Positions 32,108-64,000 of a DNA stretch of 64,000 nt are shown in pieces. The notes under the pieces were generated by a model. The model had not been told where the DNA came from and made no database searches. It saw only the letters and a program-made list of their open reading frames with translations. Source of the stretch: an uncultured Candidatus Saccharibacteria bacterium (GTDB lineage Bacteria > Patescibacteriota > Minisyncoccia > Portnoybacterales > UBA2143); contig CAYOHI010000002.1 of NCBI GenBank assembly GCA_964403725.1, positions 21,644 to 85,643 on the forward strand, written 5' to 3'. Numbering within the stretch: position 1 is the stretch's first letter; every line of letters begins with the position of its first letter. Position numbers and translations under genes: made by a program.

Positions 32108-32515
32108 ATGATGACTAAAATAAAAGGCAATACTTTAAAATTTTCTTTTAATCTCAAAGATTATCCGTTAGAAGCTCTTTACGGAGCAGCCTATGTCTTT
32201 CTTGATAAAGTCTATTTGTTTTTAAACAGTAAGCCTAAAGAAAAGATAGAGGTTTCTCTAAAAGGCAAGAAAAAGTTAAGTAAAAAACAATTAGAGAAAT
32301 TAAAGGGGGAGTTCTTAAACGAACTCTTTAATTATACTATCAGGATTAAGATGGCCAAGGGTAATCGGAAAATTAGGGAATTTATCATTGGCCAGGCTTT
32401 AATTTCGGCTTATGGCAGCGAGTCCAATCAGGAAGATGAAATGAAATATAAGGATGATCCTTTAGGTATCGCTATGTCTTGGGAGGATAAGTACGAGAAA
32501 AAAGGCAAGAAATAA
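32108..32515 (+). CDS. hypothetical protein immediately upstream of the Hxs-like module
   Basis: 135 aa, no recognisable domain. Start is adjacent to the upstream gene's stop. Confidence 0.3.
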   Translation: MMTKIKGNTLKFSFNLKDYPLEALYGAAYVFLDKVYLFLNSKPKEKIEVSLKGKKKLSKKQLEKLKGEFLNELFNYTIRIKMAKGNRKIREFIIGQALISAYGSESNQEDEMKYKDDPLGIAMSWEDKYEKKGKK

Positions 32516-32718
32516 TGCAGATAAAATTTAATAAAAAAATATACAGCTTAAAAGCTATAAAATTAGCCATTAAAGACTATCAGGGATTGGCTGATTTTAA
32601 TTTGGAGAAAAAAGGAGAATATATTTTAGTTAAATTAACTAAAATTGACAAAGAATACAAAGGAATAATTAAAGATGAATTCTGTAATTATATCCTTTCT
32701 TTAATGAAAACAGATTAA
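32515..32718 (+). CDS. small hypothetical protein (HxsD-position accessory candidate)
   Basis: 67 aa, overlaps the previous stop and lies 4 nt before the radical SAM gene. Assigned by position only. Confidence 0.3.
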   Translation: MQIKFNKKIYSLKAIKLAIKDYQGLADFNLEKKGEYILVKLTKIDKEYKGIIKDEFCNYILSLMKTD

Positions 32719-32721
32719 TTT

Positions 32722-34173
32722 ATGTCCCTTGATTCAGATAAAATTAAATACAACCAATTAGGATTCTTTCGTTTTAAAGAGTTCAAGAATAAATATCTTT
32801 TAACCAATGATGTTGGTCAATATTTATTTTTAACAAAAAAGGAATTTAAAAGTTTCTTGGAGAATAAATTGGAAAAAGATAAAGAGCCATATTTGTCTTT
32901 GAAAAAAAAGAATTTTCTAAAAAACGAATTAGACTTAACAGAATCAATTGACAGATACAGGTCAAAGAAGGATTTTCTTTTTGGCGGACCTAGTTTGCAT
33001 ATTATAGTGGTAACCTTGAGATGTAACCATAGATGCGTTTATTGCCATGCTAGTGCCCAGGCTATGGACAAAGAAGAGCTTGATATGGATGAAGTAACAG
33101 CCAGAGAGACAGTTGATAAGATTTTTGAAACAACTAGTCCCTTTGTAGCCATTGAATTTCAAGGCGGTGAGCCATTAGTCAATTGGCCAATAGTCAAATT
33201 TATTATTGAATATGCCCAGAAGAAGAACAGGAAAATAAAGAAAGATCTGGAGTTGCGCTTGGTCTCTAATATGTCTTTGATGACTAAGGAAAAATTTGAT
33301 TATTTGATCAAGAAAAAGGTGAGTATGTGTGTGTCTTTAGATGGATCTGAGAAAATACACAACAAAAACCGACCCTTGGTAGGCGATAAAACTGGGAGTT
33401 ACAAACATGCAGCCAAATGGGTTAAGAAATTCTATAAGCTCTATCCTCAATTGAGAAAGAAAGGATATATTTTCAAAATGGGCGTGGCTATTACAGTCAG
33501 TCGATTTTCACTGCCTCATTACAAGAAAATGGTTGATGAATTTATGAAATTGGGCTTTAACGATATTTACTTGCGTCCTCTAAATCCTTTCGGCTTTACT
33601 AAAAATCATTTTCAGAAAATCGGCTATGGCGTTAAGGATTACATGAAATTCTATAAAGGTGCTCTGGATTACATGATTGATTTAAACCTTAAGGGTAAGG
33701 AATTCAAGGAAAAAACAGCAATTACTTTTCTGACCAAAATTTTAACCAGAAATGATCCTAATCACTTAGATTTTCGCTCTCCTTGCGGAGCAGGTATTGG
33801 TCAATTAGCTTATAATTATAACGGAGATGTCTATACTTGCGATGAAGGAAGAATGCTATCTATGATGGATGATGAAAGTTTTCGTTTAGGCAATGTTAAA
33901 GAAAATACTTATCAGGAAATGGTAGGTAATCCAGTAGTTAGAACGATGTGCACAGCCTCTTGTTTAGAAGGCTTGCCTCATTGCAGTGATTGCGTTTACA
34001 AGCTCTATTGCGGGGTCTGTCCGATTTATAATTATTTTGAACAGGGTAATATTTTTGGCCAGATGCCGACTAATGAAAGATGCCAGATAAATATGGCTAC
34101 TTTGGATTTATTATTTGAAAAACTGCAAGATAAAAAAGCAGGACCTGTTTTGAAGTCTTGGCTGGATAAATAA
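32722..34173 (+). CDS. radical SAM/SPASM-domain peptide maturase candidate (HxsB/HxsC-like)
   Basis: CNHRCVYC (CxxxCxxC) cluster. C-terminal SPASM-like Cys array (CGAG..YTCDEG...CTASC...HCSDC...CGVCPIYN). ~85-aa N-terminal extension. Encoded directly upstream of the His-Gly-Ser repeat peptide. Confidence 0.75.
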   Translation: MSLDSDKIKYNQLGFFRFKEFKNKYLLTNDVGQYLFLTKKEFKSFLENKLEKDKEPYLSLKKKNFLKNELDLTESIDRYRSKKDFLFGGPSLHIIVVTLRCNHRCVYCHASAQAMDKEELDMDEVTARETVDKIFETTSPFVAIEFQGGEPLVNWPIVKFIIEYAQKKNRKIKKDLELRLVSNMSLMTKEKFDYLIKKKVSMCVSLDGSEKIHNKNRPLVGDKTGSYKHAAKWVKKFYKLYPQLRKKGYIFKMGVAITVSRFSLPHYKKMVDEFMKLGFNDIYLRPLNPFGFTKNHFQKIGYGVKDYMKFYKGALDYMIDLNLKGKEFKEKTAITFLTKILTRNDPNHLDFRSPCGAGIGQLAYNYNGDVYTCDEGRMLSMMDDESFRLGNVKENTYQEMVGNPVVRTMCTASCLEGLPHCSDCVYKLYCGVCPIYNYFEQGNIFGQMPTNERCQINMATLDLLFEKLQDKKAGPVLKSWLDK

Positions 34174-34237
34174 GTTTTGTGTTATCCACAGGCGGATTAG
34201 TTTTATTTAAAAAATTTTGCTATAATAAAGTAAATAA

Positions 34238-34558
34238 ATGAAAAAGACAAAATTACCTCAAATCAAGAAAGACATTAAGGCTTTCTTAACGAGCGAAGAA
34301 GGAAGGATAAATAAAAAGAAAGTAGCCAAAGTGGCTATGGGTCTTTTGGCTTTAGGAGTTGGTTTAGCTGGTGCTATGAAGCCAGATCCAACTTCAGCTG
34401 CCTGTTCTCATGCCTCTCACGGCTCACACGGATCCCATAGTTCCCACGGATCCCACGGCTCTCACGGCTCACACGGTTCTCATGGAAGTCATGGATCACA
34501 TGGTAGTCACGGCTCACACGGCTCACACGGCTCACACGGATCTCATAGTAATTATTAA
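34238..34558 (+). CDS. His-Xaa-Ser repeat precursor peptide (HxsA-like) with 14 His-Gly-Ser repeats
   Basis: 106 aa: Lys-rich leader, hydrophobic VAMGLLALGVGLAGAM segment, then SHASHGSHGSHSSHGSHG...(HGS)n...SHSNY. Confidence 0.65.
   Translation: MKKTKLPQIKKDIKAFLTSEEGRINKKKVAKVAMGLLALGVGLAGAMKPDPTSAACSHASHGSHGSHSSHGSHGSHGSHGSHGSHGSHGSHGSHGSHGSHGSHSNY
34406..34549 (+). repeat. in-frame 9-nt tandem repeat (TCN CAY GGN)x~15 encoding the SHG repeats
   Basis: Direct reading shows tctcacggc / tcacacgga / tcccatagt / tcccacgga... Third positions vary, so units are non-identical at DNA level. Confidence 0.8.
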
Positions 34559-34571
34559 TCTATAAATCATT

Positions 34572-35441
34572 ATGGGTTTTCTAAAAGAAAACAAATTATT
34601 AATAGGAATAGTAGTAGTGGTTTTGGTAGTTGTTGCTGGAATGGCAGCAATTTTTAATTGGCAAAAAACTCATCTTCCTCTAGATATTTCTCCAGAAGGA
34701 GTGAAAGCTAAATGTATTGAAGATATTACAGATATGACTGATGATGAATTAATCAATGAAGTTGATAGCTTGAAATATCCGGGAGAGGAAATATCTCCAG
34801 GAGAAACTAGAATGAATTACGGTCATAAGAATATTGTTAATTATTTAATCTGTAGATCAGTTAATGATGAAAATTACAGTAGAGCAAAAAGCTATATAGA
34901 AGGAGTGAATATCCAGGAGGAAAATAGAAAGGTGTCATTAAGTCGATTAAATGAGACTTACAATGAAGAAAATATGAATTTTTTAGAGTTATTAGCTAAT
35001 GGTAATTTAGATGATAACTGTCCTGATAAATTATCAAATCTTTGTCTTGAGAAAGCTAAGAATATATTAGGTGTTAATGAAAAAGTAGAAGAAGATTGTA
35101 ATAATATATGTGAAATTGCCAAAAATTCAAGCGAAGATGAATATTTAGAGAGCAAATTATTGAATTTAATTACTCCATCAGATGTCATATTCTACCCAGA
35201 ATCAATTATTGACGATTCTAATAAGATCATATCTCCAGAGTGGATATACGCCATAATATATAGATACAAGAAAGAAGAAGGAATACTAAAGACATGTGAA
35301 GTATTCGAGGGTGATCAAAAGAATGAATGTCTATCTTATGCAAATGATATTATCGATAGAATCAAAAAAACTGAAGGTGATTGTAGTTCTATTAGAGAAG
35401 ATTTAAGTCAGGTTATTTGTGATATTGTTGATGATAAATGA
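34572..35441 (+). CDS. membrane-anchored Cys-containing hypothetical protein
   Basis: N-terminal TM anchor. Acidic extracytoplasmic domain with several Cys pairs. Confidence 0.4.
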   Translation: MGFLKENKLLIGIVVVVLVVVAGMAAIFNWQKTHLPLDISPEGVKAKCIEDITDMTDDELINEVDSLKYPGEEISPGETRMNYGHKNIVNYLICRSVNDENYSRAKSYIEGVNIQEENRKVSLSRLNETYNEENMNFLELLANGNLDDNCPDKLSNLCLEKAKNILGVNEKVEEDCNNICEIAKNSSEDEYLESKLLNLITPSDVIFYPESIIDDSNKIISPEWIYAIIYRYKKEEGILKTCEVFEGDQKNECLSYANDIIDRIKKTEGDCSSIREDLSQVICDIVDDK

Positions 35442-36265
35442 GTTTAGAAAATAAATATCTGGATTGGAGTGGGGTTGTTCCGCTTTGGGGGGAGTATACT
35501 TCGCCCTTTAGGCCGTCTGAAAAAGAAATATTGATTTATTCTGAATATATAAAGGAGTTGGGTGAAAATATATTATTACTCGGTGCTACTCCAGAAATCA
35601 GAGAAGTTTTATCAAAATTTAAATTAAAAGTAACACTTTTAGATTCGTCCCTTGATATGATCAAGGGTATGTTTAATTATGGGAAGATTGATCGTAAAAA
35701 TGAAACCTGGATCAATGATAATTGGCTAAAAATAGATAAGGTTTTTGAAAAAAATAATTTTGATCTTATTTTAGGAGATTTAGTTTTGAGGAATATTGAT
35801 GCTAGCCAACAAGAGAAGTTTCTTAAAAAAACAGCAAATGTTTTAAGTAGTGATGGCCTACTTTTGTTAAGGATTCATTGTTGCGATTGTTATTGTGGTC
35901 AAGACGCAGATAAAGTAGTTGATGAATTTTTTAATAATTTCTCAAATGAAAATAAGAAAATAGCTGAAGACTTATTAACTTCTCGCTTATTTGATTGTTT
36001 TACTAATAAGAAAAACAAGGCTATTGATAAAAATAAATTCATTGATTATGTAAATAGTAAATTAAAAGAAGAAAAACAAGATCAGATAGAAATATTTAAT
36101 CGGATTAGCAGTAAATGGTGTGGTAATGATAGGACTTGGATACAGAGGACTAGTGATGAGATAAATAAAATGATTAATAAATATTTTAAAATTGAATATA
36201 TTTTCGCGGGAAATGATTATCCTGATTCTGAATTCTACCCGATATATGCAATTGTAAAGAAATAA
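35438..36265 (+). CDS. hypothetical protein, possibly class I methyltransferase fold with a degenerate SAM-binding loop
   Basis: ILLLGATPE / VTLLDSS / FDLILGDLVL / LSSDGLLLL follows motif I, post-I, II and III spacing, but lacks GxGxG. Confidence 0.3.
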   Translation: MSLENKYLDWSGVVPLWGEYTSPFRPSEKEILIYSEYIKELGENILLLGATPEIREVLSKFKLKVTLLDSSLDMIKGMFNYGKIDRKNETWINDNWLKIDKVFEKNNFDLILGDLVLRNIDASQQEKFLKKTANVLSSDGLLLLRIHCCDCYCGQDADKVVDEFFNNFSNENKKIAEDLLTSRLFDCFTNKKNKAIDKNKFIDYVNSKLKEEKQDQIEIFNRISSKWCGNDRTWIQRTSDEINKMINKYFKIEYIFAGNDYPDSEFYPIYAIVKK

Positions 36266-36308
36266 AATACCTCTATAGTAGAGGTATTTTATTTTCACTA
36301 ACTGAATT

Positions 36309-37688
36309 TTAGTACGAGAATGCGTTAAGATTAGTCGACAGATTGCGCATATGTTCTAGTGTATCAGATATTTCTTGATGAGAAGTTTTACAATTATATT
36401 TAATCCAGTCTTTGATAACGTTGCTCCAGTTTATAATATCTTTATCAATATATTTATTTCCAGTTTTTTTCTTAATCATATCAAATGACATTGAATTGGG
36501 GAGAGGCGTTAAATAGGACGGTACAATTAGATTATTAGGATCAGATTGTATTATTCTTTCAGCCAGTTTAATAGTCTTTTTAAGGCCTTTACTGGTTTCT
36601 CCAAGATTACCTAAGACAAAATAGCCTTCTATTGGAATTTTGTATTTTATTAATAACTCAACAGCTTTTTCATTCATGGCAGAAGTTGTTCCCTTGTTCA
36701 TAAGTTTGAGACAGTCGTCATCATTGCTTTCTATGCCGATGAATAGCTGTCTGACTTTTATTTCTGATAGTTTTTTAACTATTTTTTCATCAGCGAGATG
36801 ATTTATTCTTGCTTGAATTTTTAAATAAGGTGCATTCTTATATTTCTTTGCTTCTCTGTAGTATTTGTTAAACCATTTAATATCACCTAATAAATCATCT
36901 GTTGTTTCCCATATGTAATCAACTTTGTATTTAGAAGCTAGATTATTGTATTCAGACCAAACAGTAGCTGGGTCTTTGAAAATGTGTTCATTGTGCATCA
37001 ATGAGCAAAAAAGACACCATTTATTGTTATTCGCTCTCCAGGCACATCCTTTTTGAGAATAAGTGGTAAAAGGATTTTTGTAGTTTGAATGTGGAAAGTT
37101 TTTCTGATAGCTTTTAAAATATTTTTGAGGATCAATTATATCCTTGTTTATCTCTAATTTAGAAAAAGGAGTTATTATTAATTCATTAATCTTTATCTTA
37201 TCATTATCGCAATAGGCGATATTTTTTATTTCTGATAATTTTTTTTGAGTTATATATTCATAGAATGCTTTTTCTCCATCGCCGCGGATGACTATATCAA
37301 CGCAATAGTCTTTGGAATATATGCCTCTGTTCTTTAATATTTCCTGGTAAATTGAAGAAGGATAATGTCCGCCAAAGACCACTTTGGCTTTTATTTTTTT
37401 GCATTCTCTGGCTAGGATTAATGATTTTTCATATCCAGTAAACATCGATCCTATTCCTACGATGGTTGGTTTGAATTTTTTGATTTCTTTCTTTATTTCG
37501 TTGGTGGATAATAGCTGGTCATCCAGGATTAATAATGGAGTATTAGGTAGCTTTTCTTTGAGGTAGGATCCTATTATATTGACTCCCAAAGGAAAATGAG
37601 GTCCTTGTCGAAGTTCAAAGATATTTTTTGGTTTTGAATTGTAAGGCAGAGGATTAACTACGTTAATCAGTATTATTTTTTCTCCCAT
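36309..37688 (-). CDS. B12-binding-domain radical SAM protein (class B-like)
   Basis: N-terminal cobalamin-binding-like Rossmann region (IVGIGSMFTGYEKS..VVFGGHYPS). Then CAWRANNNKWCLFC (C-x9-C-x2-C) in the radical SAM core. Confidence 0.55.
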   Translation of the reverse strand: MGEKIILINVVNPLPYNSKPKNIFELRQGPHFPLGVNIIGSYLKEKLPNTPLLILDDQLLSTNEIKKEIKKFKPTIVGIGSMFTGYEKSLILARECKKIKAKVVFGGHYPSSIYQEILKNRGIYSKDYCVDIVIRGDGEKAFYEYITQKKLSEIKNIAYCDNDKIKINELIITPFSKLEINKDIIDPQKYFKSYQKNFPHSNYKNPFTTYSQKGCAWRANNNKWCLFCSLMHNEHIFKDPATVWSEYNNLASKYKVDYIWETTDDLLGDIKWFNKYYREAKKYKNAPYLKIQARINHLADEKIVKKLSEIKVRQLFIGIESNDDDCLKLMNKGTTSAMNEKAVELLIKYKIPIEGYFVLGNLGETSKGLKKTIKLAERIIQSDPNNLIVPSYLTPLPNSMSFDMIKKKTGNKYIDKDIINWSNVIKDWIKYNCKTSHQEISDTLEHMRNLSTNLNAFSY

Positions 37689-38599
37689 CCTCTTATTAAT
37701 CCTTTCTTTTTATAGCTAGTTTTGTCTTTTAGTTTATTTTTATTATGAGCTATTTTTCTGACATAGCATGAGACACATTCTCCACAATGATCATCATCCC
37801 ATTTAATGCAACTCCGAGCTCTATCTATCGGTATATCTTGATCTGTCGCCCATTTTAGTAAATCTGCTTTTGAGAGGAAAAAGCCAAATTCTTTTTCTAA
37901 TGGCAGGGAAGTGACTTGCCAGGAGTAGTCATTCATCAAAGAACAAACAGATAAGTTATTAGTTCTCATAGCTGTTAGTGTCTCATCTCTCATGACATAG
38001 CCATCTTCGGCAACAATGGCTGTAAAGATGTTTCTTACTTTGATATTTTCCTTGATCTTAAGGAAGATTGCGTATTGTACCCCATATGAAGTTAAAAGAT
38101 TAGTGTACATCGGGATCCCTAAATGTTGGCCTAGTTTATTAACTGGCTTGCTGGAAACATCAATGATTGGGAAGCGAATCTCCATCGGCGGGATATAGGC
38201 GTTCATTTTTTTAACTTTATGCCAATATTTAGGATATCTTTTTTTATAATATTTGGAAAAGTAGTCTACAGACTTTTCTTCAAAGGCAACTCTTTTTTGT
38301 CCTCTTCTTAAAAATACTGGATGAACGTGTACTTTATAGACTTCCATTAGATAAGCCCAGGTAGTGACGCTATCCATTCCTCCAGAAAACATTAATATTA
38401 CATGAGAATTAGCTAAGGGCCTTTTCATTACATGGCCTTTTTGTTCTTTAAATATATTTTCAATTGTCTGGATGAGCTTGGGGTCTTCTAATTTTCTTGA
38501 ATTTAAGAGATTTTGAATTTCTTTTTTTGTTTTTGTTTTGAATTTATTCATATTATTTCTTGATATAGTTTTGTTTGATAATTCCCTCCCACCAGTCAT
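37673..38599 (-). CDS. QueC-like PP-loop ATPase (7-cyano-7-deazaguanine synthase family) with N-terminal extension
   Basis: VILMFSGGMDSV PP-loop and C-terminal Zn-ribbon CIKWDDDHCGECVSCY matching the QueC C-terminal CxxC..CxxC. 308 aa, longer than typical QueC. Confidence 0.5.
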   Translation of the reverse strand: MTGGRELSNKTISRNNMNKFKTKTKKEIQNLLNSRKLEDPKLIQTIENIFKEQKGHVMKRPLANSHVILMFSGGMDSVTTWAYLMEVYKVHVHPVFLRRGQKRVAFEEKSVDYFSKYYKKRYPKYWHKVKKMNAYIPPMEIRFPIIDVSSKPVNKLGQHLGIPMYTNLLTSYGVQYAIFLKIKENIKVRNIFTAIVAEDGYVMRDETLTAMRTNNLSVCSLMNDYSWQVTSLPLEKEFGFFLSKADLLKWATDQDIPIDRARSCIKWDDDHCGECVSCYVRKIAHNKNKLKDKTSYKKKGLIRGWEKK

Positions 38600-40358: not shown

Positions 40359-40360
40359 GA

Positions 40361-44195: not shown

Positions 44196-44199
44196 TTTT

Positions 44200-46333: not shown

Positions 46334-46337
46334 GATT

Positions 46338-56661: not shown

Positions 56662-57541
56662 TATTAAAATAGGGTTTGGCTGTAATAATCATTGTCTTTT
56701 TTGTGTTCAAGGTGATAAAAGGAATTTTTGCCAGTCCAAGCCAAAAAAAGAAATAGAAAGATCTCTTAAAGAGGCTTTTAAGAAAAACAAGGAAGAGGTT
56801 GTTTTCACTGGCGGTGAGCCGTGCATGCATCCTAATTTTTTAGAATTGGTTAAAATAGCCAAAAATATCGGTTTTAAAGAAATTCAAGTTCAAACCAATG
56901 GTCGGATGTTGGCTTACGATGATTTCTGTCTAAAGGTTGTCCAGGCTGGAGCAACTCAATTTTCACCAGCCCTGCATGGGTCAAATGCTAGAACCCATGA
57001 CTATCTGACCTGCGCTAAAGGCAGCTTTGACCAGACAATCCAAGGAATTAAAAATCTTAAGAAGTTAAACCAGTATGTTTTAACTAATACGGTTATTACC
57101 TCGAAAAACTATAAGCAAATTCCTAAGATAGCTGAAATATTGGTTAATTTAGATGTTGATCAATTCCAGTTTGCCTTTATTCACTTGGGTGGAATTGCTT
57201 GGGAAAACAAAGATTGGATTGTTCCTAAAAAAATCCTAATCATGCCTTTTGTTAAAAAAGGATTAGATGTTGGATTAAAGGCTAAGAAGAGGGTAACTAC
57301 CGAAGCAATCCCATATTGCTTGATGAAAGGTTACGAGGATTGTATTGCTGAAAGAATCATTCCCAAATCGATGGTTTTTGATTCTGATTTCGTGGTTGAG
57401 GATTACTCAGGGTATCGAAAAGATAAAGGGAAAGCTAAAGGACCGAATTGCAAGAAATGCAAATATGATAAAATCTGTGAAGGGCCTTGGAAAGAATATC
57501 CTGAATTGTTTGGTTGGAAAGAATTTAAGCCAGTGAAATAA
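56648..57541 (+). CDS. radical SAM protein, CNNxCxFC/twitch-type family (paralog 1)
   Basis: GFGCNNHCLFC, TGGEPC, GSFDQTIQGIKNL. C-terminal CKKCKYDKICEGPWKEYPELFGWKEFKP. Confidence 0.7.
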   Translation: MERVDIKIGFGCNNHCLFCVQGDKRNFCQSKPKKEIERSLKEAFKKNKEEVVFTGGEPCMHPNFLELVKIAKNIGFKEIQVQTNGRMLAYDDFCLKVVQAGATQFSPALHGSNARTHDYLTCAKGSFDQTIQGIKNLKKLNQYVLTNTVITSKNYKQIPKIAEILVNLDVDQFQFAFIHLGGIAWENKDWIVPKKILIMPFVKKGLDVGLKAKKRVTTEAIPYCLMKGYEDCIAERIIPKSMVFDSDFVVEDYSGYRKDKGKAKGPNCKKCKYDKICEGPWKEYPELFGWKEFKPVK

Positions 57542-57543
57542 AT

Positions 57544-58269
57544 ATGGGAAATTTTTCTGGATTAGTTAAAAGAATAAAAGTAGCAAGAAATATCATTTCA
57601 GTCGAAGATCCTCTGTTGATTGATATCCTGTCCAGTAATTATGGCCGAAAAATCAGATCTATCAAAAGGATAAATAGAAAGAAATCCTTCATTTGTAGAG
57701 CTTGGAAAGTCGAATTTATTTCCCATAAATCTGCTTTTATGAAAATAGATTTTGATGTTGATTCAAAGAACTTGCTGTTACAGGAAAAAGTCTTTCAATC
57801 TAAAATTTTTAAAGCAAATGAAGTTGTCTTACCTTTATGGCCGACAAAAGATAACCATCCTATGCTGTCGTTGAAATGCCCTAGAAAGCCATTTAATCTT
57901 ACGCTTTCCGATTATTTAGAAAATACTATTAATTTTAAAAAGAAATATTTTTCAGACTTAGCAGTAATATTGGCCAAATTGCATTCGAAGAAAAGAAATA
58001 ATCTTGTTTTATCTCACGGTGATTTTACAAGGGAGAACATTCTATTGGATGAGAATAAGAATATATGGTTGGTTGATTGGGAAAATTCTAAATTTGGCTA
58101 TCCAGAATGCGATATAAGCTATTTTGTAAGAGATGGCATGGATGCTTATGGATTGGAAATAAATAATCCATTGCATAAGTCATTTCTCAAAACATATGAA
58201 AAATATTCTAAATTAAAGGTTGATTGCAATCGTTTAGAGAAATATTTAAAGGATTTTAATAAGAAATGA
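57544..58269 (+). CDS. protein-kinase-like fold small-molecule kinase (APH/choline kinase family)
   Basis: HGDFTRENILL (HGDxxxxN catalytic loop) and WLVDWENS (DxE metal-binding). Confidence 0.55.
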   Translation: MGNFSGLVKRIKVARNIISVEDPLLIDILSSNYGRKIRSIKRINRKKSFICRAWKVEFISHKSAFMKIDFDVDSKNLLLQEKVFQSKIFKANEVVLPLWPTKDNHPMLSLKCPRKPFNLTLSDYLENTINFKKKYFSDLAVILAKLHSKKRNNLVLSHGDFTRENILLDENKNIWLVDWENSKFGYPECDISYFVRDGMDAYGLEINNPLHKSFLKTYEKYSKLKVDCNRLEKYLKDFNKK

Positions 58270-60170
58270 AAAAAAGACTATACTTTGCCAGTTTAGACAA
58301 ATGCAATGAAGATTGTCTTTTTTGTGTGCGCGGCGGCGATGAAAAACCGATTGGCCACATTGATACAAAACGAGCAAAAAAGATTATTTCAGAAAAAAAG
58401 AAAAAAGGTTATCAGGAAATTTTTTTTGATGGCGGAGAACCGACTTTAAGGGATGACTTGACTGAATTAATTGAATTTTCTAAAAAGAAAAAATATTCAG
58501 CAGCCAATATTTTGACCAATGGAGTTCTGCTTTCAAAAGAAAAATTAGTCAAAGACCTATTATCAGTAAAAAACACAAAAAACTTCAGTTTATCTTTTTC
58601 CGTCTCTCTTCACTCACATAAAAAAGATATTTCAGAAAAACTAGTTGGCAGAAAAAATACTTTTAACAGAACTATTAAAGGAATAGATAATCTGATTAAG
58701 AATGGATGTGATAGCATTTCCATTTATCATGTCATTACCAAATACAACTACAAAGATCTGCCAGGCTTTGTTAAGTTTATCAACAAAAAGTTTCCTCAAG
58801 TTAAAAATATTACTTTCTCATATATCTACCCAGTCGGGGCTGCCTTGAAAAATAAAAAGATTTTCCCGCAACTTTCCAAAACAGAAATATATTTCCAAAA
58901 AGCCTTAAAGCTATGCAAAGAATATAAGATGAATTTTTCAATCACTACTTGCGGCACTATTCCTTTATGCTTTTTAAAAGGTTATGAAGATATCCTATTA
59001 AACCAACAGGAATTAGATCAACCAGGAAAAGTGGGTATAGTGGATACGGTTAAAGATGAACAATATCAGTTAGCTACAGATCAATTTCATGAAAAAACTA
59101 AAATTAAATCATCTAAATGCAAGGATTGTTTGTATGATGATAAATGTGGTGGTATTTGGCGAACTTATGTTGAACTTTATGGATTAAACGAATTAAAGCC
59201 AATAAAAAAGAAAAAACCTGAAAATCAGAATGTCCTCCTATTACTAACAGGATTCTCTTGTAATAATAATTGTGTTTTTTGCTCTAACGTAGCTGACCGC
59301 AATTTTAATAGCTCAACCAAAGAACTGTTTAAAAAAATTGATCAGGGCTATGAAAAAGGATTTAGAATTCTAGAACTCATTGGCGGCGAAGTTCCCATTA
59401 GGCCTGATTTTTTTGAATTAATTAATTATGCCAAAAAAGCTGGCTTTAAAGATATTAGATTGACTTCTAATGGCCGGATCTTTTCCTATCCGGAATATGC
59501 CAAGAAAGTAGCTCAAGCAGGATTAAAAGTTATGACTGTTTCTCTGTATGGTCACAAGAAATCATTGCATGACGGAGTCACCAGGACACCGGGATCATTT
59601 GACCAGTGTATCAAAGGCATTAAAAATATTTCTAAAACAGGAATAGAATTAGTCATCAATACCGTTATCTCAAAAGTAAATTACAAATATCTGTATGAAA
59701 TCGGTAATTTTGTCAGTCAATTGGGAGTTAAAGAATGGCATCCTTTAGAATTGCTGCCTGATGGCCAAGGCGCTAAGCATTATGATAGTCTAGCTGTTCC
59801 ATACAAGGAGCTTTCAAAATATATTAGGAAGATTAATAAATTAGCTGGTTCTAAATTTAAAAGAATAGATTTCTTTGATTTTCCTTTCTGTGTTTTCAAC
59901 AAAGAGATGCTGAAAAACAAAAATATTGTCATGTTCACGCCCGAGAGAAGATGTGAAGATATTAAGATGGAAGCTCATGACTCATCTTCAAGAGTTGATA
60001 AGGTCATAAAAAAAGGAAAAGTAGTTTACCAGGACAAATACAAGACTAAGCCAAAATTCTGCCAAAGCTGCTCGTATTTCAGTCAGTGTGGCGGCGTAAC
60101 TAAGTCATATTTTAAAAAATATGGCGATGAGGAAATAAGGGAATTAGCTAAAAAGAATAAATTTGTATGA
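58266..60170 (+). CDS. fused tandem di-domain radical SAM protein (paralogs 2 and 3 of the CNNxCxFC family)
   Basis: Domain 1: LDKCNEDCLFC...CKDCLYDDKCGGIWRTYVELYGLNELKP. Domain 2: FSCNNNCVFC...GSFDQCIKGIKN...CQSCSYFSQCGGVTKSYFKKYGDEE. Confidence 0.7.
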   Translation: MKKRLYFASLDKCNEDCLFCVRGGDEKPIGHIDTKRAKKIISEKKKKGYQEIFFDGGEPTLRDDLTELIEFSKKKKYSAANILTNGVLLSKEKLVKDLLSVKNTKNFSLSFSVSLHSHKKDISEKLVGRKNTFNRTIKGIDNLIKNGCDSISIYHVITKYNYKDLPGFVKFINKKFPQVKNITFSYIYPVGAALKNKKIFPQLSKTEIYFQKALKLCKEYKMNFSITTCGTIPLCFLKGYEDILLNQQELDQPGKVGIVDTVKDEQYQLATDQFHEKTKIKSSKCKDCLYDDKCGGIWRTYVELYGLNELKPIKKKKPENQNVLLLLTGFSCNNNCVFCSNVADRNFNSSTKELFKKIDQGYEKGFRILELIGGEVPIRPDFFELINYAKKAGFKDIRLTSNGRIFSYPEYAKKVAQAGLKVMTVSLYGHKKSLHDGVTRTPGSFDQCIKGIKNISKTGIELVINTVISKVNYKYLYEIGNFVSQLGVKEWHPLELLPDGQGAKHYDSLAVPYKELSKYIRKINKLAGSKFKRIDFFDFPFCVFNKEMLKNKNIVMFTPERRCEDIKMEAHDSSSRVDKVIKKGKVVYQDKYKTKPKFCQSCSYFSQCGGVTKSYFKKYGDEEIRELAKKNKFV

Positions 60171-61021
60171 AGGAAAAATATTATACAGTAGGCAATAGTC
60201 CGTTTCTTTATGCAGGATATGAATGCAATAATTTGTGTATTTTTTGTTTTGAAGCTGATAGGGAATTTCCCCAGAAAAGCACTAAGAATTTAAAAAAAGA
60301 AATGAAGATTATCAGAAAGAATTTCAATTTCATCAATATTATGGGCCAGGAGCCAACACTAAGAAAAGATATTATTGAACTGATTGATTATGCCAAAGAA
60401 TTGAAATTTAAAGATATAAGCATAACAACAAATGGAAGAATGTTCGCCTATCCTGATTTTACTAAAAATATTTTAAATAGCGGCTTGACTCAGATCGGAT
60501 TAACGATGATGGGCAAAACAGCCAAAATGCATGATCTGCACACTCGGGCTAAAGGAAGCTTTGACCAGGCTTTGATGGGTATTAAAAATATTATGAAATA
60601 CAAGAATGATAATTTCAGTTTTTTGCTTAACTTGATGGTTACTCAGAAAAATTACAAAGATTTAGTTGAAATTATTGATTTCTATGTTGGTCTTGGATTT
60701 AAAGAAATAAATGTCGGCCACATTATGCCCATTAATAGAGCTATTACTAAATCCAAATCAATAGTGGCTCAGATTAGCAAAGTTACTCCATACTTGGTAA
60801 AATGCCAAAAGAAGCATGGAAATGAAGTTAAGTTTCTGTTTGTTGAATATCCAGCTTGTTCTTTTTCTGAAAAATATCGTCATCTGTCATTTCCTTGCCT
60901 GGAAGAAAATCCTGATAAGATAAGGATTAAGATATGCGGGAAGTGCGAATACAGGGATAAATGTGCAGGAATAGGCAAGAGTTACTTAAATCTCTATGGA
61001 GATAAGGAGTTTAAGATATAA
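60167..61021 (+). CDS. radical SAM protein, CNNxCxFC/twitch-type family (paralog 4)
   Basis: YECNNLCIFC, GQEPTL, GSFDQALMGIKN. C-terminal CGKCEYRDKCAGIGKSYLNLYGDKEFK. Confidence 0.7.
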   Translation: MKEKYYTVGNSPFLYAGYECNNLCIFCFEADREFPQKSTKNLKKEMKIIRKNFNFINIMGQEPTLRKDIIELIDYAKELKFKDISITTNGRMFAYPDFTKNILNSGLTQIGLTMMGKTAKMHDLHTRAKGSFDQALMGIKNIMKYKNDNFSFLLNLMVTQKNYKDLVEIIDFYVGLGFKEINVGHIMPINRAITKSKSIVAQISKVTPYLVKCQKKHGNEVKFLFVEYPACSFSEKYRHLSFPCLEENPDKIRIKICGKCEYRDKCAGIGKSYLNLYGDKEFKI

Positions 61022-61938
61022 TGAAAAACAAGATTAAAAAAACAGTCATCATTACCGGATATAAATGCAATAATCATTGCCGTTTTTGTATTGATGCCGA
61101 TAAGAGAGAATTGTCTGACAAGACTACTTTGGAAATTAAAAATGAAATGATTGAAGCAAGAAAAAGAGGTACGACATATTTAGAATTAATTGGCGGGGAA
61201 ACAACTATTAGGCCAGATGCTTTAGAACTTGTCAGTTTTGCTAAGAATTTAGGCTTTAAGACAATCAATATGGCTACTAATGGCCGGATGTTTTCTTATC
61301 CAGAATACACACAAAAGATGATTGATGCGGGACTGACTGACATTATCTTTTCTATTCATGGTCATGATACAAAACTTCATGATAAATTGACTCAAGTCTC
61401 TGGCAGCTTTAAACAATTAGTTAAAGGTTTGAATAATTTTAAGAATCTTGGTTTTAAAAATATTGGTTCTAATACGACCATTGTTAAACAAAACTACAAA
61501 TACCTGCCTCAAATTGCCAAATTCATTTTTGATTCCGGTATTAGAAATTCTGAATTCATTTTTGTTGATCCAAATTATGGAGCAGCCAAAACCCATTTTA
61601 AAGAGTTGGTTCCTAAGATCTCTCAAATTGCACCATATGTTAAAAAATGCCTTGATGTCGGCAAGAAGAATAAGATTCCTCATTGGGCAATCCGCTATGT
61701 TCCCTTATGTTATTTTGAGGACTATTTGGATCAGATCAGTGAATTGCAAGAAGTTAAAACTTTTAAGACAGAACATTTGGCTCCTGATTTTGAAAATTTC
61801 AATGTTGAAGAATCAAGACAAGAGATTGGACGGACTAAATCTAAGAAATGCAAGGAATGTAAGCTATTTAATAAATGTGAAGGTATTTGGAAAGAATACA
61901 TTAAACAATACGGCGATAAGGAATTAAAACCTTTGTAA
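61021..61938 (+). CDS. radical SAM protein, CNNxCxFC/twitch-type family (paralog 5)
   Basis: YKCNNHCRFC, GGETTI, GSFKQLVKGLNN. C-terminal CKECKLFNKCEGIWKEYIKQYGDKELKP. Confidence 0.7.
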   Translation: MKNKIKKTVIITGYKCNNHCRFCIDADKRELSDKTTLEIKNEMIEARKRGTTYLELIGGETTIRPDALELVSFAKNLGFKTINMATNGRMFSYPEYTQKMIDAGLTDIIFSIHGHDTKLHDKLTQVSGSFKQLVKGLNNFKNLGFKNIGSNTTIVKQNYKYLPQIAKFIFDSGIRNSEFIFVDPNYGAAKTHFKELVPKISQIAPYVKKCLDVGKKNKIPHWAIRYVPLCYFEDYLDQISELQEVKTFKTEHLAPDFENFNVEESRQEIGRTKSKKCKECKLFNKCEGIWKEYIKQYGDKELKPL

Positions 61939-61940
61939 TT

Positions 61941-62870
61941 ATGGATATTTGTATTTGGGATAAATGTAATAATTTCTGCTTAATGTGCACTAATCCGGAT
62001 AAGCCCTGGCTTTCTTTTGATGGAAGACCGGAAGAAGGATATGATTATGAAACTTTGACTAAAAGAATTGAAAGATTAAAAGAAAAAATAGATCCCAATG
62101 ATGCAATTATCCTAACTGGCGGAGAACCAACTCTTCATCCTAGATTTTTGGATGTTTTAAAGTTTGTTAGGAAAACTTTTCCTAAACAAGAGGTTAGAGT
62201 TCTGACTAATGGTCGCTGTTTTATGTATAAGGATTTTGTTCAAAATGTTTTAAAAACTAATAATCTTCATTTAGCTGTTTCTTTGTACGGGCCTACTCCA
62301 AAAATTCACGATGGCATAACTAGGGCTAAGAATAGCTTTGAACAGACTATTGGAGGACTGAAGAATATATTGGCTAATAAGAAGGATGACCAGAGTGTTG
62401 AAATTAGAATAGTTATTAGTAAATTATCATATAGGTATCTGGATCAGTTCTTAAATTTAATTAGGAATTCCTTTCCTTTAATAGACCGGGTGATTTTAAT
62501 TTTCATAGAACATGAAGGACAAGCTAGTAAAAACTTAAAAAGTGTCAGTCTCGCATATTCCAAGGTAAAGCCATATTTAGATAAGGCGTATCCGCTTTTT
62601 GAATATTTCAAAGAAATTAGGCTTTATCATTTTCCTTTATGCACTGTTGATTCAAAGTTCTGGCCTTTTGTCTGGCGAACTTTGCCAGAAAAAGAAGTGA
62701 CTTTCATTTCATCTTGTAATCAGTGTAAGTACAAGAATTTTTGTCTAGGTATCCACAGGGATCATCCCAATAAGGTAAAAGGAAAAGAATTCAATCCCAT
62801 AAAAGAAGATTTGATTATTGAAGAAACAAAGGATTTTTATCATCCAATTATTAAAGTAGGTAAGAAATAA
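61941..62870 (+). CDS. radical SAM protein, CNNxCxFC/twitch-type family (paralog 6, most divergent)
   Basis: WDKCNNFCLMC, TGGEPTLHP, NSFEQTIGGLKN. C-terminal CNQCKYKNFCLGIHRDHPNKVKGKEFNP. Confidence 0.65.
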   Translation: MDICIWDKCNNFCLMCTNPDKPWLSFDGRPEEGYDYETLTKRIERLKEKIDPNDAIILTGGEPTLHPRFLDVLKFVRKTFPKQEVRVLTNGRCFMYKDFVQNVLKTNNLHLAVSLYGPTPKIHDGITRAKNSFEQTIGGLKNILANKKDDQSVEIRIVISKLSYRYLDQFLNLIRNSFPLIDRVILIFIEHEGQASKNLKSVSLAYSKVKPYLDKAYPLFEYFKEIRLYHFPLCTVDSKFWPFVWRTLPEKEVTFISSCNQCKYKNFCLGIHRDHPNKVKGKEFNPIKEDLIIEETKDFYHPIIKVGKK

Positions 62871-64000
62871 TGATTTTTAATATTTTATTTTTACCATTTG
62901 TTTTCTTTCTTGGTCTGATTACTAGTTACCAAGATACTAAATACGGCAAAGTTAAGAATAAGTGGATTATTCTGGGTTTGAGCTGGGGATTAATTGTTAT
63001 TGTGTTCTTTTTTGCCTGGTATTTTGTCGCCTCGCCAATTACCCGCTATTACTATTTTGAAATCCAGAATTTGCCAGATGATTCTCCAGCTCCTGTCTTT
63101 ACCGTTTCTCTGGGATATCTAAGTAGGGTTATGACCAATGCTATCATTGCTTTAGTCCTTTCATATCTGATGTGGCGCTTTGGCGCCTGGGCAGCCGGGG
63201 ATGCCAAGCTTTTTGCCGTTTATGCCCTATTGATACCTCTGGAATATTATTGGAAATCATATTTACCATATTTTCCTTCTTTTGTCTTGCTAATAAATAT
63301 TTTTATTCCTATTTTTCTGTACCTTTTAATTAGATCCATCATATATTTTATAAAATTTCTTTATCTTAAATTATCTGATCCAAAAGAGAGGAATAAGAAG
63401 ATAAAGCTTGATAAGAAGAGAATTAAAGGGAGGATCAAAGGAATGGGAATAATGGCTCTCATTTTTATCACTATCTTTTTAGCCTTTGGCTTGTTCCAGG
63501 AGCCAATTCAGAATGCTTTCAATATTAATATATCTTCCATCCAGATCTTTATCTTTGCCGGTTTAATAATCTTTAGCAGCTTTTTAGCTGCTTTCTTTAA
63601 AAAACCAATTGTTTTCAAGGTATTTCTTGCTTTATTAGTTGTAATGCTAATCTATGGCTTGAGCGATTCTCCTTCGGCTACTTGGCAGATTATCCAGCGG
63701 ACATTAAAAATGATGATTATATTCATGACTATTTTAAATATATTCAGGGCCTTGATCGATTTCCATATCTTGAAAACTGGAACCAGAGAGATAAGGGTTA
63801 AGGATTTGAAACCAGGAATGAATTTGGATGAAGAGATAATCAACAGGATGAAAAGAAAAAAGAAACTTTTCAAGAAATATATGGGCCATATTTATCCTGG
63901 AGGATTGACTCCAGAACAAGTTGATTTTACAAAAAAATGGTTGAAAAAGACTGATTTGAAAAAAGTTAGTATCTACAAGCTTTTCCCTTTTGTGACTTGG
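62870..64000 (+). CDS. A24-family (prepilin/preflagellin peptidase-like) aspartyl peptidase membrane protein, 3' partial at the window edge
   Basis: ORF open to the window end (absent from the ORF track). ATG overlaps the upstream TAA (ATGA). SYQDTKYGKVKN (first Asp region) and AWAAGDAKLFAV (GxGDxKL second catalytic Asp), cf. PilD MGLGDVKF at 30801..31592. Multiple TM helices, Lys-rich soluble C-terminal part. Confidence 0.45.
   Translation, partial: MIFNILFLPFVFFLGLITSYQDTKYGKVKNKWIILGLSWGLIVIVFFFAWYFVASPITRYYYFEIQNLPDDSPAPVFTVSLGYLSRVMTNAIIALVLSYLMWRFGAWAAGDAKLFAVYALLIPLEYYWKSYLPYFPSFVLLINIFIPIFLYLLIRSIIYFIKFLYLKLSDPKERNKKIKLDKKRIKGRIKGMGIMALIFITIFLAFGLFQEPIQNAFNINISSIQIFIFAGLIIFSSFLAAFFKKPIVFKVFLALLVVMLIYGLSDSPSATWQIIQRTLKMMIIFMTILNIFRALIDFHILKTGTREIRVKDLKPGMNLDEEIINRMKRKKKLFKKYMGHIYPGGLTPEQVDFTKKWLKKTDLKKVSIYKLFPFVTW

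Follow-up and report, generated by a model that had tools for sequence, protein, structure and literature searches.

A radical SAM gene island in a Patescibacteria genome that probably represents an expanded Hxs system

Introduction

The Hxs system was first defined in silico by Haft and Basu in 2011 (as cited in PMC9062424) and has been an orphan radical S-adenosylmethionine (SAM) system since that time. In Escherichia coli, the four HXS genes (HxsA/B/C/D) constitute an antiphage system (Li et al., Nat Commun 2026, PMC13128918); HxsC is essential and binds HxsD, the mature protein is periplasmic, and the processed periplasmic protein carries a +8 Da ('+C/−4H') change within SHRSS (PMC13128918). 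The chemistry is unsolved even after this work. Of all HXS systems, 99.7% have been placed in Pseudomonadota (PMC13128918). Here we analyse a locus from outside that phylum: a stretch of 64,000 nt ('the window'; contig CAYOHI010000002.1 of assembly GCA_964403725.1, positions 21,644 to 85,643) from an uncultured bacterium that GTDB places in the Portnoybacterales of the Patescibacteriota. The closest homologues of its proteins that carry organism names are from Patescibacteria/Parcubacteria. An earlier note, made from the sequence alone, had described positions 32108 to 64000 as an island rich in radical SAM genes with an Hxs-like module upstream. We conclude that the island is probably one functional unit, an expanded Patescibacteria-type Hxs system that matures a ribosomally made peptide. 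The cluster itself is real and conserved, and we infer that its substrate is a peptide.

Results

An Hxs module and an array of HxsC-like proteins

The ~32-kb island extends from ~31.6 kb to past 64 kb of the window and comprises ~35 genes, some 30 of which encode modifying enzymes. The open reading frame (ORF) map, with Pfam and NCBIfam assignments, divides it into three blocks, at 31623–36265 (+), 36309–41605 (−) and 41735 to the window end (+). Between 31.6 and 64 kb there are 13 radical SAM proteins, whose 14 domains each exceed the Pfam gathering score (29.5), so that the figure of at least 12 domains given in the earlier note was a slight understatement. The corresponding genes start at 32722 (HxsB), 36309 (−; a B12-binding protein), 41735, 47054, 48955, 49810, 50703, 55303, 56648, 58266 (two domains), 60167, 61021 and 61941. 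The CX3CX2C motif is present in 13 of the 14 domains, the B12-binding protein having CX9CX2C instead.

The Hxs module lies in the first block. HxsD (32108–32515, +; TIGR03976, 56.5 bits against a cut-off of 50), a small HxsD-like protein (32515–32718, +; NF038315, 78.4 bits against 41) and the radical SAM/SPASM maturase HxsB (32722–34173, +; TIGR03978, 527 bits against 370; CX3CX2C at residue 101) precede HxsA4 (34238–34558, +), a precursor that passes model NF038313 (72.3 bits against 55) and contains ~18 Ser-His-Gly (SHG) repeats of the His-Xaa-Ser (HxS) type, which bears out the HxsA-like peptide noticed earlier. No HxsC, and specifically none at equivalog level, adjoins HxsB in the window; the order HxsD – HxsD-like – HxsB – HxsA4 is followed by ~28 more genes and is not a four-gene Hxs architecture.

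HxsC-like proteins are found at the far end of the third block, where the last six radical SAM domains (56648, 58266 with two, 60167, 61021 and 61941) all have HxsC4 or HxsC as their best NCBIfam match. These are rSAM7 (56648–57541, +; HxsC4-like, 166 bits with NF038332 and 100 bits with TIGR03977; orthologues 56–80% identical), a double radical SAM protein with two fused HxsC-like domains (58266–60170, +; 140 bits over two stretches with Pfam Radical_SAM, 258 bits with NF038332 and 214 bits with TIGR03977; ~35 full-length homologues), the HxsC-like rSAM10 (60167–61021, +), the HxsC4-like rSAM11 (61021–61938, +; orthologues 60–81% identical) and rSAM12 (61941–62870, +). HxsC4 is the best match for four of the five proteins, with HxsC the best match for rSAM12, which is the nearest to canonical HxsC (TIGR03977, 189 bits, below the cut-off of 267.9). 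The NF038332 (HxsC4) scores of the five, 166, 258 (two domains), 121, 162 and 91 bits, all fall short of the cut-off of 500.

Because the six terminal domains are HxsC-like, the HxsD/HxsD-like/HxsB/HxsA4 module and the large operon look like one system. The HxsC partner that is required in E. coli would then be supplied here sixfold, by diverged copies located where the operon ends. The earlier note had counted Hxs among the pathways that do not fit the island, and had set the Hxs-like module apart as an upstream element of its own; both views need revision, given the HxsC-like terminal domains and the contiguity of these genes in relatives. Orthologues of the HxsC-like proteins are 54–81% identical between genomes, whereas paralogues within a genome are 27–38% identical, which indicates that the duplications are old and that every copy has been retained. 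The presence of one-to-one orthologues in relatives suggests that the paralogues perform distinct, non-redundant steps.

An exact database look-up of the double radical SAM protein returned no record; a shorter call (P0001), 100% identical to it, is on the near-identical contigs L002/L003 (L and P numbers denote loci and proteins from our searches). Larger HxsC-like multi-domain proteins, of ~700–1,225 aa with three or more radical SAM domains, occur in Nealsonbacteria, Omnitrophica, myxobacteria and archaea (L008; hits P0035–P0065).

Conservation of the cluster in related genomes

Locus contexts were compared over ±10 kb per anchor. HxsB of the window has a 100% identical counterpart on ENA contig ERZ23499079 scaffold_1064 (L084), and the distal island genes are 100% identical to those of L002/L003, contigs that reach beyond the window end. 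In a more distant relative, L085 and L087 together form one 201-kb contig (GCA_964601305.1) with an HxsB 70% identical to that of the window, and its cluster genes are all on one strand and uninterrupted. Their order is HxsD, HxsD-like, HxsB, HxsA4 (~35 repeats), a homologue of the 289-aa protein described below, two methyltransferase-like proteins, the B12-binding radical SAM protein, a 322-aa protein, a radical SAM/SPASM protein, a 71-aa protein, rSAM2, GT28, TsaD-like, Sua5-like, rSAM6, a second radical SAM/SPASM protein, rSAM7, the double radical SAM protein, rSAM10, rSAM11, rSAM12, the membrane protease and a PKD-like protein. In relatives, the 322-aa protein encoded after the B12-binding protein is not a QueC-like homologue. 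The HxsC/HxsC4 best matches, together with this contiguity of Hxs genes and operon in relatives, make the island best read as an expanded Hxs system.

rSAM6 (55303–56661, +; 452 aa, Pfam) is a core component with 26 related metagenome loci, of which 12 are long. Most of the long loci read (TsaD-like, Sua5-like) – rSAM6 – rSAM7 – double radical SAM – rSAM10/11/12 – membrane protease, to the contig limit, and the TsaD-like and Sua5-like genes are present in nearly all that extend far enough. The exceptions are L094 and L111, with no separate match for the double radical SAM protein or rSAM12; L101, with rSAM6, two rSAM7-like genes and a weak double-rSAM match and without rSAM10–12 or the protease; L109 and L110, with glycosyltransferase and rSAM3/rSAM5-type genes in place of the array; and L107, which stops at rSAM6. 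rSAM2 (47054–47905, +; Pfam, 65.3 bits) is likewise a core component, with orthologues of 49–51% identity in L085, L088, L115 and L119. A scan of genome contigs with the single protein encoded at 41735 detected no relatives, and a second scan, with alignment A1, detected only three close loci among 80. HxsB itself is widespread: among the matches listed, more than 120 database clusters are at least 52% identical to the window protein, and those with organism names are from the Patescibacteria group (Portnoy-, Falkow- and Magasanikbacteria) or an unclassified 'bacterium', under the NCBI name HxsB. The gene-neighbourhood comparison proposed earlier thus revealed a cluster that recurs in many Patescibacteria, with parts of it in Elusimicrobia and Dehalococcoidia.

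Two further proteins of the related loci are both absent from the window, in which a kinase gene sits between rSAM7 and the double radical SAM protein instead: a conserved protein of 69–74 aa before the rSAM7 orthologue in seven loci (for example L001 8898–9107 and L118 5524–5748), and a DUF483-like protein of ~330 aa in eight loci, typically between rSAM10 and rSAM11. The loci noted for one or both also include L089, L092, L096, L101 and L104.

The precursor peptide and its neighbours

HxsA4 in the window reads MKKTKLPQIKKDIKAFLTSEEGRINKKKVAKVAMGLLALGVGLAGAMKPDPTSAACSHASHG(SHG)n...SHSNY. It consists of an N-terminal region of ~25 residues with the conserved leader PQIKKDIKAFLxSEEGRINKK, a hydrophobic segment that resembles the h-region of a signal peptide and carries an A-x-A-like site, the SHG repeats and the end SNY. 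In orthologues the leader is ~80% identical and the hydrophobic segment is kept; the site varies (TSA|AC, SSA|DC, ASA|AC) within a conserved junction A-x-A|AC(S/T/F)HAS, the core beginning C(S/T/F)HAS; and the C-terminal residue is aromatic in most (SNY, GSY, GSW, SSY). Repeat number ranges from ~18 to ~45. Compared as DNA, the 9-nt units are alike at only 74%, yet they encode an almost perfect peptide repeat, which argues for selection on the peptide rather than recent slippage. Deposited gene calls overlooked HxsA4 at L118 4983–5327 and L119 12148–12714, where an ORF on the wrong strand or in the wrong frame was called instead; HxS precursors are therefore probably under-annotated in metagenome databases. 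The sequence TGCTATAAT at 34216–34226 (+), an extended −10-like element by eye, is separated from the start codon of HxsA4 by only 11 nt, in which no Shine–Dalgarno sequence is obvious; TGCTATAAT could be a precursor-specific promoter that gives a near-leaderless mRNA.

HxsA4 is always followed by a membrane-anchored, Cys-rich protein of 289 aa (34572–35441, +), which has no family match in Pfam or NCBIfam and whose orthologues in L085, L088 and L119 are 31–32% identical. The next gene encodes a methyltransferase-like protein (35438–36265, +) with weak Pfam methyltransferase matches, all below gathering, and with orthologues of 40–43% identity in L085 and L088. At the other end of the module, directly before HxsD, is a membrane-anchored protein of 160 aa (31623–32105, +) with no Pfam or NCBIfam match and with weak homologues at the same position in L088 and L119. 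The B12-binding radical SAM protein, of the methyltransferase type (36309–37688, −; Pfam B12-binding, 41.1 bits; Radical_SAM, 45.4 bits), is encoded last in the minus-strand block. Its non-canonical CX9CX2C motif (GCAWRANNNKWCLFC) is conserved in the orthologues of L085 and L088, where the gene shares its strand with the Hxs genes; in the window it is inverted together with the nucleoside-type genes.

Putative tailoring enzymes

The third block opens with rSAM1 (41735–42580, +), a PA0069/Rv2578c/'mobile pair B'-like protein with a 73% identical orthologue in L115, and continues with two pairs of U32-type genes. Two U32-family proteins, at 42577–43452 (+; UbiU-like, with a CX6C motif) and 45398–46333 (+), match Pfam Peptidase_U32 with 88.1 and 83.6 bits (cut-off 22.4), and each adjoins a smaller, UbiV-like partner (43431–44195, +, 254 aa; 46338–47051, +, 237 aa). 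The earlier note had counted four U32 proteins; two of them are recognized by Pfam, and the partners, which have no Pfam match and lie below U32 detection, are U32-like by profile, fold and cysteines. They align to the U32 proteins by hhalign (E = 2.9e-5), they have a TIM-barrel fold for which U32 peptidase 5d88 is the closest match, and they are paralogues, 31% identical to each other with four cysteines conserved (C29...C184-X13-C198-X3-C202 in the first). UbiU and UbiV form an O2-independent hydroxylase heterodimer of the U32 family (PMC6747719, PMC10990095). The partners' pattern C...C-X13-C-X3-C can be set beside the UbiV 4Fe-4S motif CXnCX12CX3C (PMC6747719), and the U32 proteins retain the UbiU-type CX6C (alignment A4). 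The two pairs thus look like UbiU/UbiV-type heterodimers, the UbiV-like assignment being supported rather than decisive; the UbiU equivalog model NF047963, whose cut-off is 440 bits, gives the U32 proteins 66 and 46 bits.

A UbiV-like/U32 pair also occurs within a quinohemoprotein amine dehydrogenase operon (L117 5147–12045), in the order alpha subunit, radical SAM protein, gamma subunit, beta-propeller, UbiV-like/U32 pair, ABC transporter and S8 protease. There the pair may be an anaerobic substitute for an oxygen-dependent step of cofactor formation. As genomic context, this is another setting of protein-cofactor maturation and is compatible with O2-independent oxidation of a protein-derived cofactor by U32 pairs.

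Between the two pairs lies an SHMT-fold pyridoxal phosphate (PLP) enzyme, transaldolase- or SHMT-like (44200–45405, +), whose Pfam SHMT score of 89 bits (cut-off 27) agrees with the earlier assignment; its NCBIfam matches are to fluorothreonine transaldolase (280 bits, below 650) and SHMT (NF000586, 197 bits, below 335), and its best PDB relatives are 7k34, a 'threonine aldolase' (163 bits), and an archaeal SHMT (152 bits). The three glycosyltransferase domains reported before are likewise recovered by Pfam, as a GT4 enzyme (47898–48974, +; Glycos_transf_1, 92.8 bits; orthologues 61–70% identical in L088, L092, L109 and L119) and a fusion of MurG-like GT28-C with GT2 (51601–53691, +). The two halves of the latter are arranged in other ways, split or fused, in L001, L087 and L115, and L115 encodes a GT28C–radical SAM–GT2 fusion protein of 894 aa (10683–13367). 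Interspersed are two STM4011-like radical SAM proteins (48955–49809 and 49810–50706, both +; Pfam, NCBIfam) and a radical SAM/SPASM protein (50703–51629, +; Radical_SAM, 63.5 bits; SPASM, 47.4 bits). The APH-like kinase of the earlier note (57544–58269, +; APH/choline-kinase fold) stands, with 38.7 bits in Pfam APH against 23.2; among the loci examined it occurs only in the near-identical L002/L003.

The TsaD-like and Sua5-like genes are separate and adjacent, with a 4-nt overlap. The TsaD/Kae1-like protein (53688–54707, +) is divergent, scoring 115.9 bits with Pfam TsaD and 153 bits with NCBIfam TsaD (below the cut-off of 296), and its best solved relatives are bacterial TsaD proteins at only 89 bits; the Sua5/YrdC-like protein (54704–55306, +) scores 149.9 bits with Pfam Sua5_yciO_yrdC and 154 bits with TIGR00057 (cut-off 123). 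A canonical TsaD (6254–7213, −; Pfam, 318.6 bits; TIGR03723, 423 against 296), which adjoins a tRNA-Glu gene at 7259–7333, lies 47 kb upstream. Its presence rules out a t6A housekeeping role for the island gene, which is a second, divergent copy and not the t6A enzyme. The split Kae1-like/YrdC-like pair described earlier is therefore present in this sense. The TsaD-like gene is a cluster-specific paralogue that most related loci have kept; no second Sua5 was found within the 64-kb window, and the Sua5-like protein may be shared with the t6A pathway. YrdC-like and Kae1-like domains acting together are typical of TobZ/HypF-type transferases, which the island pair may resemble functionally.

Upstream of the third block, the translationally coupled genes of the minus-strand block (36309–41605) encode, beyond the B12-binding protein, a QueC-like PP-loop ATPase (37673–38599, −; Pfam QueC, 49.3 bits against 22; NCBIfam QueC, 34 bits, far below 150), a YfbR-like HD-domain phosphohydrolase (38553–39134, −; HD_3, 88.1 bits; 80% identical in L115), an adenine-phosphoribosyltransferase-like protein (39118–39669, −; NF002636, 83 bits, below 125), a DeoD-type nucleoside-phosphorylase-like protein (39663–40358, −; PNP_UDP_1, 84.8 bits; 67% identical in L115) and a group II PLP-dependent decarboxylase (40361–41605, −; Pyridoxal_deC, 42.3 bits; 70% identical in L115; NCBIfam histidine decarboxylase, 151 bits, below 305). 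These five, together with rSAM1, both U32 pairs, the SHMT-like gene and the kinase, are without a counterpart in the L085/L087 cluster and are therefore classed as accessory. Most of them recur together, at 67–80% identity, in the close relative L115, where HD, methyltransferase, nucleoside phosphorylase and PLP decarboxylase genes are divergent from rSAM1, U32, UbiV-like partner and SHMT-like genes. A 7-deazaguanine/queuosine pathway was considered and rejected, the island having only the weak QueC-like protein and a QueE-like score of 34 bits, with no QueD or FolE found. Overall, nearly every family assignment of the earlier note was confirmed by Pfam and NCBIfam.

The tailoring gene set differs between genomes. 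Elsewhere its place is taken by GFO/IDH/MocA oxidoreductases (L001), a short-chain dehydrogenase (SDR; L088), a DegT-type aminotransferase (L116), and a sulfotransferase, GT9 and PMT_2-type GT-C enzymes (L118, L119), besides AsnB-like proteins; what recurs is a constant Hxs/radical SAM core surrounded by sugar-type tailoring. This raises the alternative of two or three independent neighbours: a compact Hxs module, perhaps with one HxsC-like enzyme, a purine-salvage operon, and an anaerobic glycan or aminoglycoside-/nucleoside-like pathway in which sugars, and not the peptide, would be the substrates of most of the radical SAM enzymes, of the glycosyltransferases, of the carbamoyltransferase-like pair and kinase, and of the U32 hydroxylases. 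The GT4 and GT28/GT2 enzymes, the TobZ-like TsaD-like and Sua5-like proteins, the APH kinase, the PLP decarboxylase and the SHMT fold are indeed typical of sugar or nucleoside tailoring, as are the additions in relatives; the HxsC-like domains score 48–95 bits against the nucleoside-sugar decarboxylase BlsE; and the phosphorylase, phosphoribosyltransferase and HD protein are common housekeeping types. We nevertheless regard such a division as unlikely. In L085/L087 the Hxs genes continue into the radical SAM, glycosyltransferase, TsaD-like and HxsC-like genes with no break, and without a canonical HxsC beside HxsB a compact module would miss a part that the E. coli system cannot do without (PMC13128918). 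A glycosylated, Ser-rich exported peptide would, moreover, reconcile the two readings.

Furthermore, HxsB-type genes occur with HxsC-like arrays in four further phylum-level groups: L012 and L116 have both an HxS peptide and HxsD as well, L009 has the peptide and L010 has HxsD, neither having been found in L014. Specifically, L012 has an SHG-repeat peptide, HxsD, HxsD-like, HxsB and at least four HxsC-like genes; L116 (Dehalococcoidia) has HxsD, HxsB, an HxS peptide, a protease homologue, an rSAM6-like gene, a U32/UbiV-like pair and GT28; L009 (Elusimicrobiales) has HxsB, an SHG-repeat peptide and a 56% identical rSAM7 orthologue; L010 (an archaeon) has HxsD, HxsB and two HxsC-like genes; and L014 (Elusimicrobia) has HxsB-like and HxsC-like genes, a protease homologue and two U32/UbiV-like pairs, with no HxS peptide found on its contig.

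The terminal membrane protease and the type IV pilus

The last gene of the window (62870–64000, +) crosses its end and encodes a polytopic membrane protein, 400 aa long in L002, with aspartyl-protease motifs of the GxGD (A24-like) type. It had been described as A24 peptidase-like; its Pfam A24 score (25.0 bits) is just below gathering (26.5), and the designation stands on its two catalytic Asp motifs, D22 in SY(E/Q)D...GKxxN and D115 in W-x-AGDAKLF, which are invariant in 12 orthologues from three phyla. It lacks the A24_N_bact domain, unlike the PilD encoded at 30801–31592. The family has no dedicated Pfam or NCBIfam model; a library of 1.84 billion proteins contains 987 representative clusters of it at a threshold of E ≤ 1e-3 and 610 at one of E ≤ 1e-10. 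A PKD-like protein follows the protease gene in seven loci. On L002, the full membrane protease is followed past the window end (7831–12942) by two PKD/Ig-like secreted proteins that begin with a shared CTSNVxQPACY N-terminus, four minor-pilin-like proteins and a trypsin-like protease. The h-region and A-x-A site of HxsA4, the terminal membrane protease and the secreted PKD-like proteins after it make the exported or surface product envisaged earlier plausible.

A complete type IV pilus operon (22234–31592; PilM, PilO, PilB, pilin, response regulator, PilT, PilC, two pilins and PilD) lies immediately upstream of the island, and it could be argued that the radical SAM array, glycosyltransferases and GxGD protease modify pilins or PKD-like surface proteins, with HxsA4 a bystander or accessory. 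The order pilus operon – PilD – 160-aa protein – HxsD is shared by three lineages, the window, L088 and L119 (HxsB 72–75% identical); the protease has Asp motifs of the prepilin-peptidase type; PKD-like proteins come next in the seven loci; and minor-pilin genes lie 3′ of the cluster in L001, L002 and L104. We consider this very unlikely, however. The full cluster of L085/L087 departs from that order, adjoining ribonucleotide reductase and sigma factor genes with no pilus genes nearby; the Elusimicrobia, Dehalococcoidia and archaeal loci likewise have none nearby; and the window already has a canonical PilD with its N-terminal domain. The pilus link is a lineage-specific synteny, the constant feature being the Hxs components. 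Just upstream of the pilus operon the context is ordinary, with genes for a ComF-like phosphoribosyltransferase that carries a double zinc ribbon, for RecG and for three tRNAs (Arg, Ser, Ser); this context includes 21413–22201 (−), 16581–18710 (−) and 18666–20558.

Transcription units and base composition

The block from 41735 to the window end holds 22 genes, 21 of them complete and one truncated, at junctions that range from −29 to +4 nt, which upholds the earlier description of a long run on one strand and makes it a single tightly packed unit. In 5′ to 3′ order the junctions are −4, −22, 4, −8, 4, 2, −8, −20, 0, −4, −29, −4, −4, −4, −14, 2, −4, −4, −1, 2 and −1 nt; gene starts were taken as longest-ORF starts, so that overlaps may be overestimated. 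A promoter-like site, TTGACA-17-TATAAT (12/12), lies at 31539–31567 (+), within the 3′ end of pilD and 56 nt before the 160-aa gene. It is the sole perfect match in 31000–42500 and, as a consensus match, suggests that the unit starts at 31623 rather than 32108. An Rfam scan of the island detected no riboswitch and no other RNA family.

Island genes (31623–64000) have a mean GC of 0.315, ~6 points lower than the 0.372 of 31 upstream genes (1–31592; Mann–Whitney p = 6e-7), whereas codon preference correlates closely with that of flanking genes (relative synonymous codon usage, r = 0.97). The earlier claim that both match the host thus holds for codon usage and fails for GC. The lower GC might point to a recently acquired mobile island, or to an assembly or binning chimera, without coherent function in its host. 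We find this scarcely credible, and synteny has already largely refuted it: the junctions PilD–160-aa protein–HxsD and membrane protease–PKD–minor pilins recur in independent assemblies and relatives, codon preference matches that of the flanks, and no integrase, transposase or flanking tRNA was seen at the island borders.

Discussion

Family assignment and synteny give the parts list of the island and show that its parts travel together. From its sequence, HxsA4 is made with a conserved N-terminal recognition region of ~25 residues, a signal-peptide-like segment, ~18 Ser-His-Gly repeats and an aromatic end. We propose that, in the cytoplasm, HxsB, a radical SAM/SPASM enzyme, and the six paralogous HxsC-like domains would modify the repeats, assisted, by analogy with the E. 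coli HxsC–HxsD complex, by HxsD and the HxsD-like protein. The other radical SAM enzymes, including the B12-dependent one, would also act, and the two UbiU/UbiV-like U32 pairs could carry out O2-independent hydroxylation. The GT4 and GT28/GT2 enzymes would add sugars to Ser residues or to a group that these carry, the TsaD-like/Sua5-like pair would perform a carbamoyl- or acyl-adenylate-type transfer, and the kinase might add a further group. The peptide would then be exported and HxsA4 cut by the GxGD-type membrane protease of the cluster, by signal peptidase or by both, leaving the product at the cell surface near the secreted PKD-like protein that is usually encoded after the protease gene. 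The nucleoside phosphorylase and adenine-phosphoribosyltransferase-like protein may recycle the 5′-deoxyadenosine or adenine released by 14 radical SAM domains; this salvage is a weak suggestion, because the phosphorylase is DeoD-like and not MTAP- or MTAN-like. By analogy with E. coli HXS, the product could serve as a surface barrier to incoming phage DNA.

Several observations weigh against the interpretation of the island as an expanded Hxs system. No island protein reaches the cut-off of HxsC (TIGR03977, 267.9) or HxsC4, the best TIGR03977 scores being 213.9 and 189 bits, and the HxsC-like genes lie 22–28 kb downstream of HxsB with a divergent minus-strand block between; their domains also resemble BlsE to the extent given above. 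HxsA4 as the substrate of the whole enzyme set is what we infer. The glycosyltransferases, carbamoyltransferase-like pair and kinase, like the sugar-type oxidoreductases, aminotransferases and sulfotransferase of relatives, would equally fit a glycan or small-molecule pathway. The accessory genes (nucleoside phosphorylase, phosphoribosyltransferase, HD, QueC-like, PLP decarboxylase, U32 pairs and SHMT-like) recur as a block only in L115, and the island is lower in GC than its flanks. Finally, dense packing is usual in such genomes, so that co-transcription is weak evidence for shared function. Despite these points, we hold an expanded Hxs system to be the probable explanation.

A more specific form of the Hxs interpretation, which we offer tentatively as possible though doubtful, is that the cluster makes a new ribosomally templated surface polymer, in which 18–45 SHG units are rebuilt into a non-proteinogenic, probably glycosylated, His-derived coat near the type IV pilus. 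An assembly line of about seven HxsB/HxsC-type radical SAM paralogues, with the U32 hydroxylases, glycosyltransferases and TsaD-like/Sua5-like transferase, would build it. If such a polymer exists, it might gate incoming phage DNA or form the host-cell interface of episymbionts; it would also be the product of the most radical SAM-rich peptide pathway known to us, and a major conserved investment of reduced-genome Patescibacteria.

For the Hxs field, the Patescibacteria form combines a simpler, many-repeat substrate with a full set of separable enzymes and could make Hxs chemistry tractable. Contrary to the distribution seen in isolate genomes, Hxs-type systems are abundant beyond Pseudomonadota, with a large Patescibacteria branch in metagenomes. 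Organisms with tiny genomes that spend ~30 kb and 14 radical SAM domains on what is probably one exported product presumably gain something central to surface biology or defence. The cluster also gives a context to three little-understood families: the UbiV-like U32 partners, the non-tRNA TsaD/Sua5 paralogues and the ~1000-cluster family of GxGD membrane proteases.

Relation to known systems

The literature on HxsB, His-Xaa-Ser and Patescibacteria radical SAM proteins or ribosomally synthesized peptides with post-translational modifications (RiPPs) yielded only the study in E. coli and papers that touch on the Hxs family in passing, such as PMC9062424; nowhere in it was the expanded 30-kb cluster described. 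As the earlier note had supposed, no characterized cluster with the gene set and order of the island emerged. Known defence systems were considered as well: PADLOC gave only generic or weak matches (QueC/QatC, ShosT phosphoribosyltransferase, pVip-type radical SAM), PADLOC 2023 predating HXS.

Among RiPP clusters with radical SAM enzymes (SCIFF, PQQ, mycofactocin and triceptide/cyclophane systems, for instance HaaB and HtkB), the combination of a leader peptide with a radical SAM/SPASM maturase is shared with the island, and triceptides provide a precedent for His-centred cross-linking (PMC11499958). Those clusters have few radical SAM enzymes each, none combines them with U32 hydroxylases, glycosyltransferases and a TsaD-like/Sua5-like pair, and the island scores far below the cut-offs of the SCIFF, PQQ, mycofactocin and triceptide NCBIfam models. 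Like UbiU/UbiV, each of the two pairs in the island consists of a CX6C-bearing U32 protein and an adjacent, smaller partner; unlike in that system there is no UbiT and no quinone pathway, and the pairs presumably act on a side chain of a peptide or on an attached sugar. The adjacent YrdC-like and Kae1-like domains, distinct from the t6A TsaD of the window, recall the TobZ/HypF-type enzymes, but are two proteins and not a fusion, and are closest to tRNA TsaD and Sua5 (HypF, 19 and 59 bits).

The closest comparison is with E. coli HXS. HxsB, HxsD and the His-Xaa-Ser repeat protein of the island pass the same NCBIfam models and the radical SAM partners are HxsC-like; the N-terminal region of the precursor is likely to be removed, its predicted destination is extracytoplasmic, and the SHGS units resemble SHRSS. 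In contrast to the four genes of E. coli, the island has ~35, with six HxsC-like domains, none adjoining HxsB, and two HxsD-type proteins. Its precursor is a short leader followed by 18–45 uniform SHG repeats (across orthologues), without a peptidoglycan-binding domain, and it adds further radical SAM proteins, one of them B12-binding, U32 pairs, glycosyltransferases, a TsaD-like/Sua5-like pair, a kinase and a GxGD protease. Its hosts are Patescibacteria and not Pseudomonadota. The cluster is thus a member of the Hxs family by its HxsA, HxsB and HxsD, and departs from it in having neither a canonical HxsC nor the four-gene architecture nor a peptidoglycan-binding effector. NCBIfam curators had already defined 'type 4' models, for which we found no described function or extended gene set. 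HxsA4 (NF038313) and the HxsD-like protein (NF038315) of the island pass these models, whereas its HxsC-like proteins score 91–258 bits against the HxsC4 (NF038332) cut-off of 500, which sets the island apart as a different, much expanded branch.

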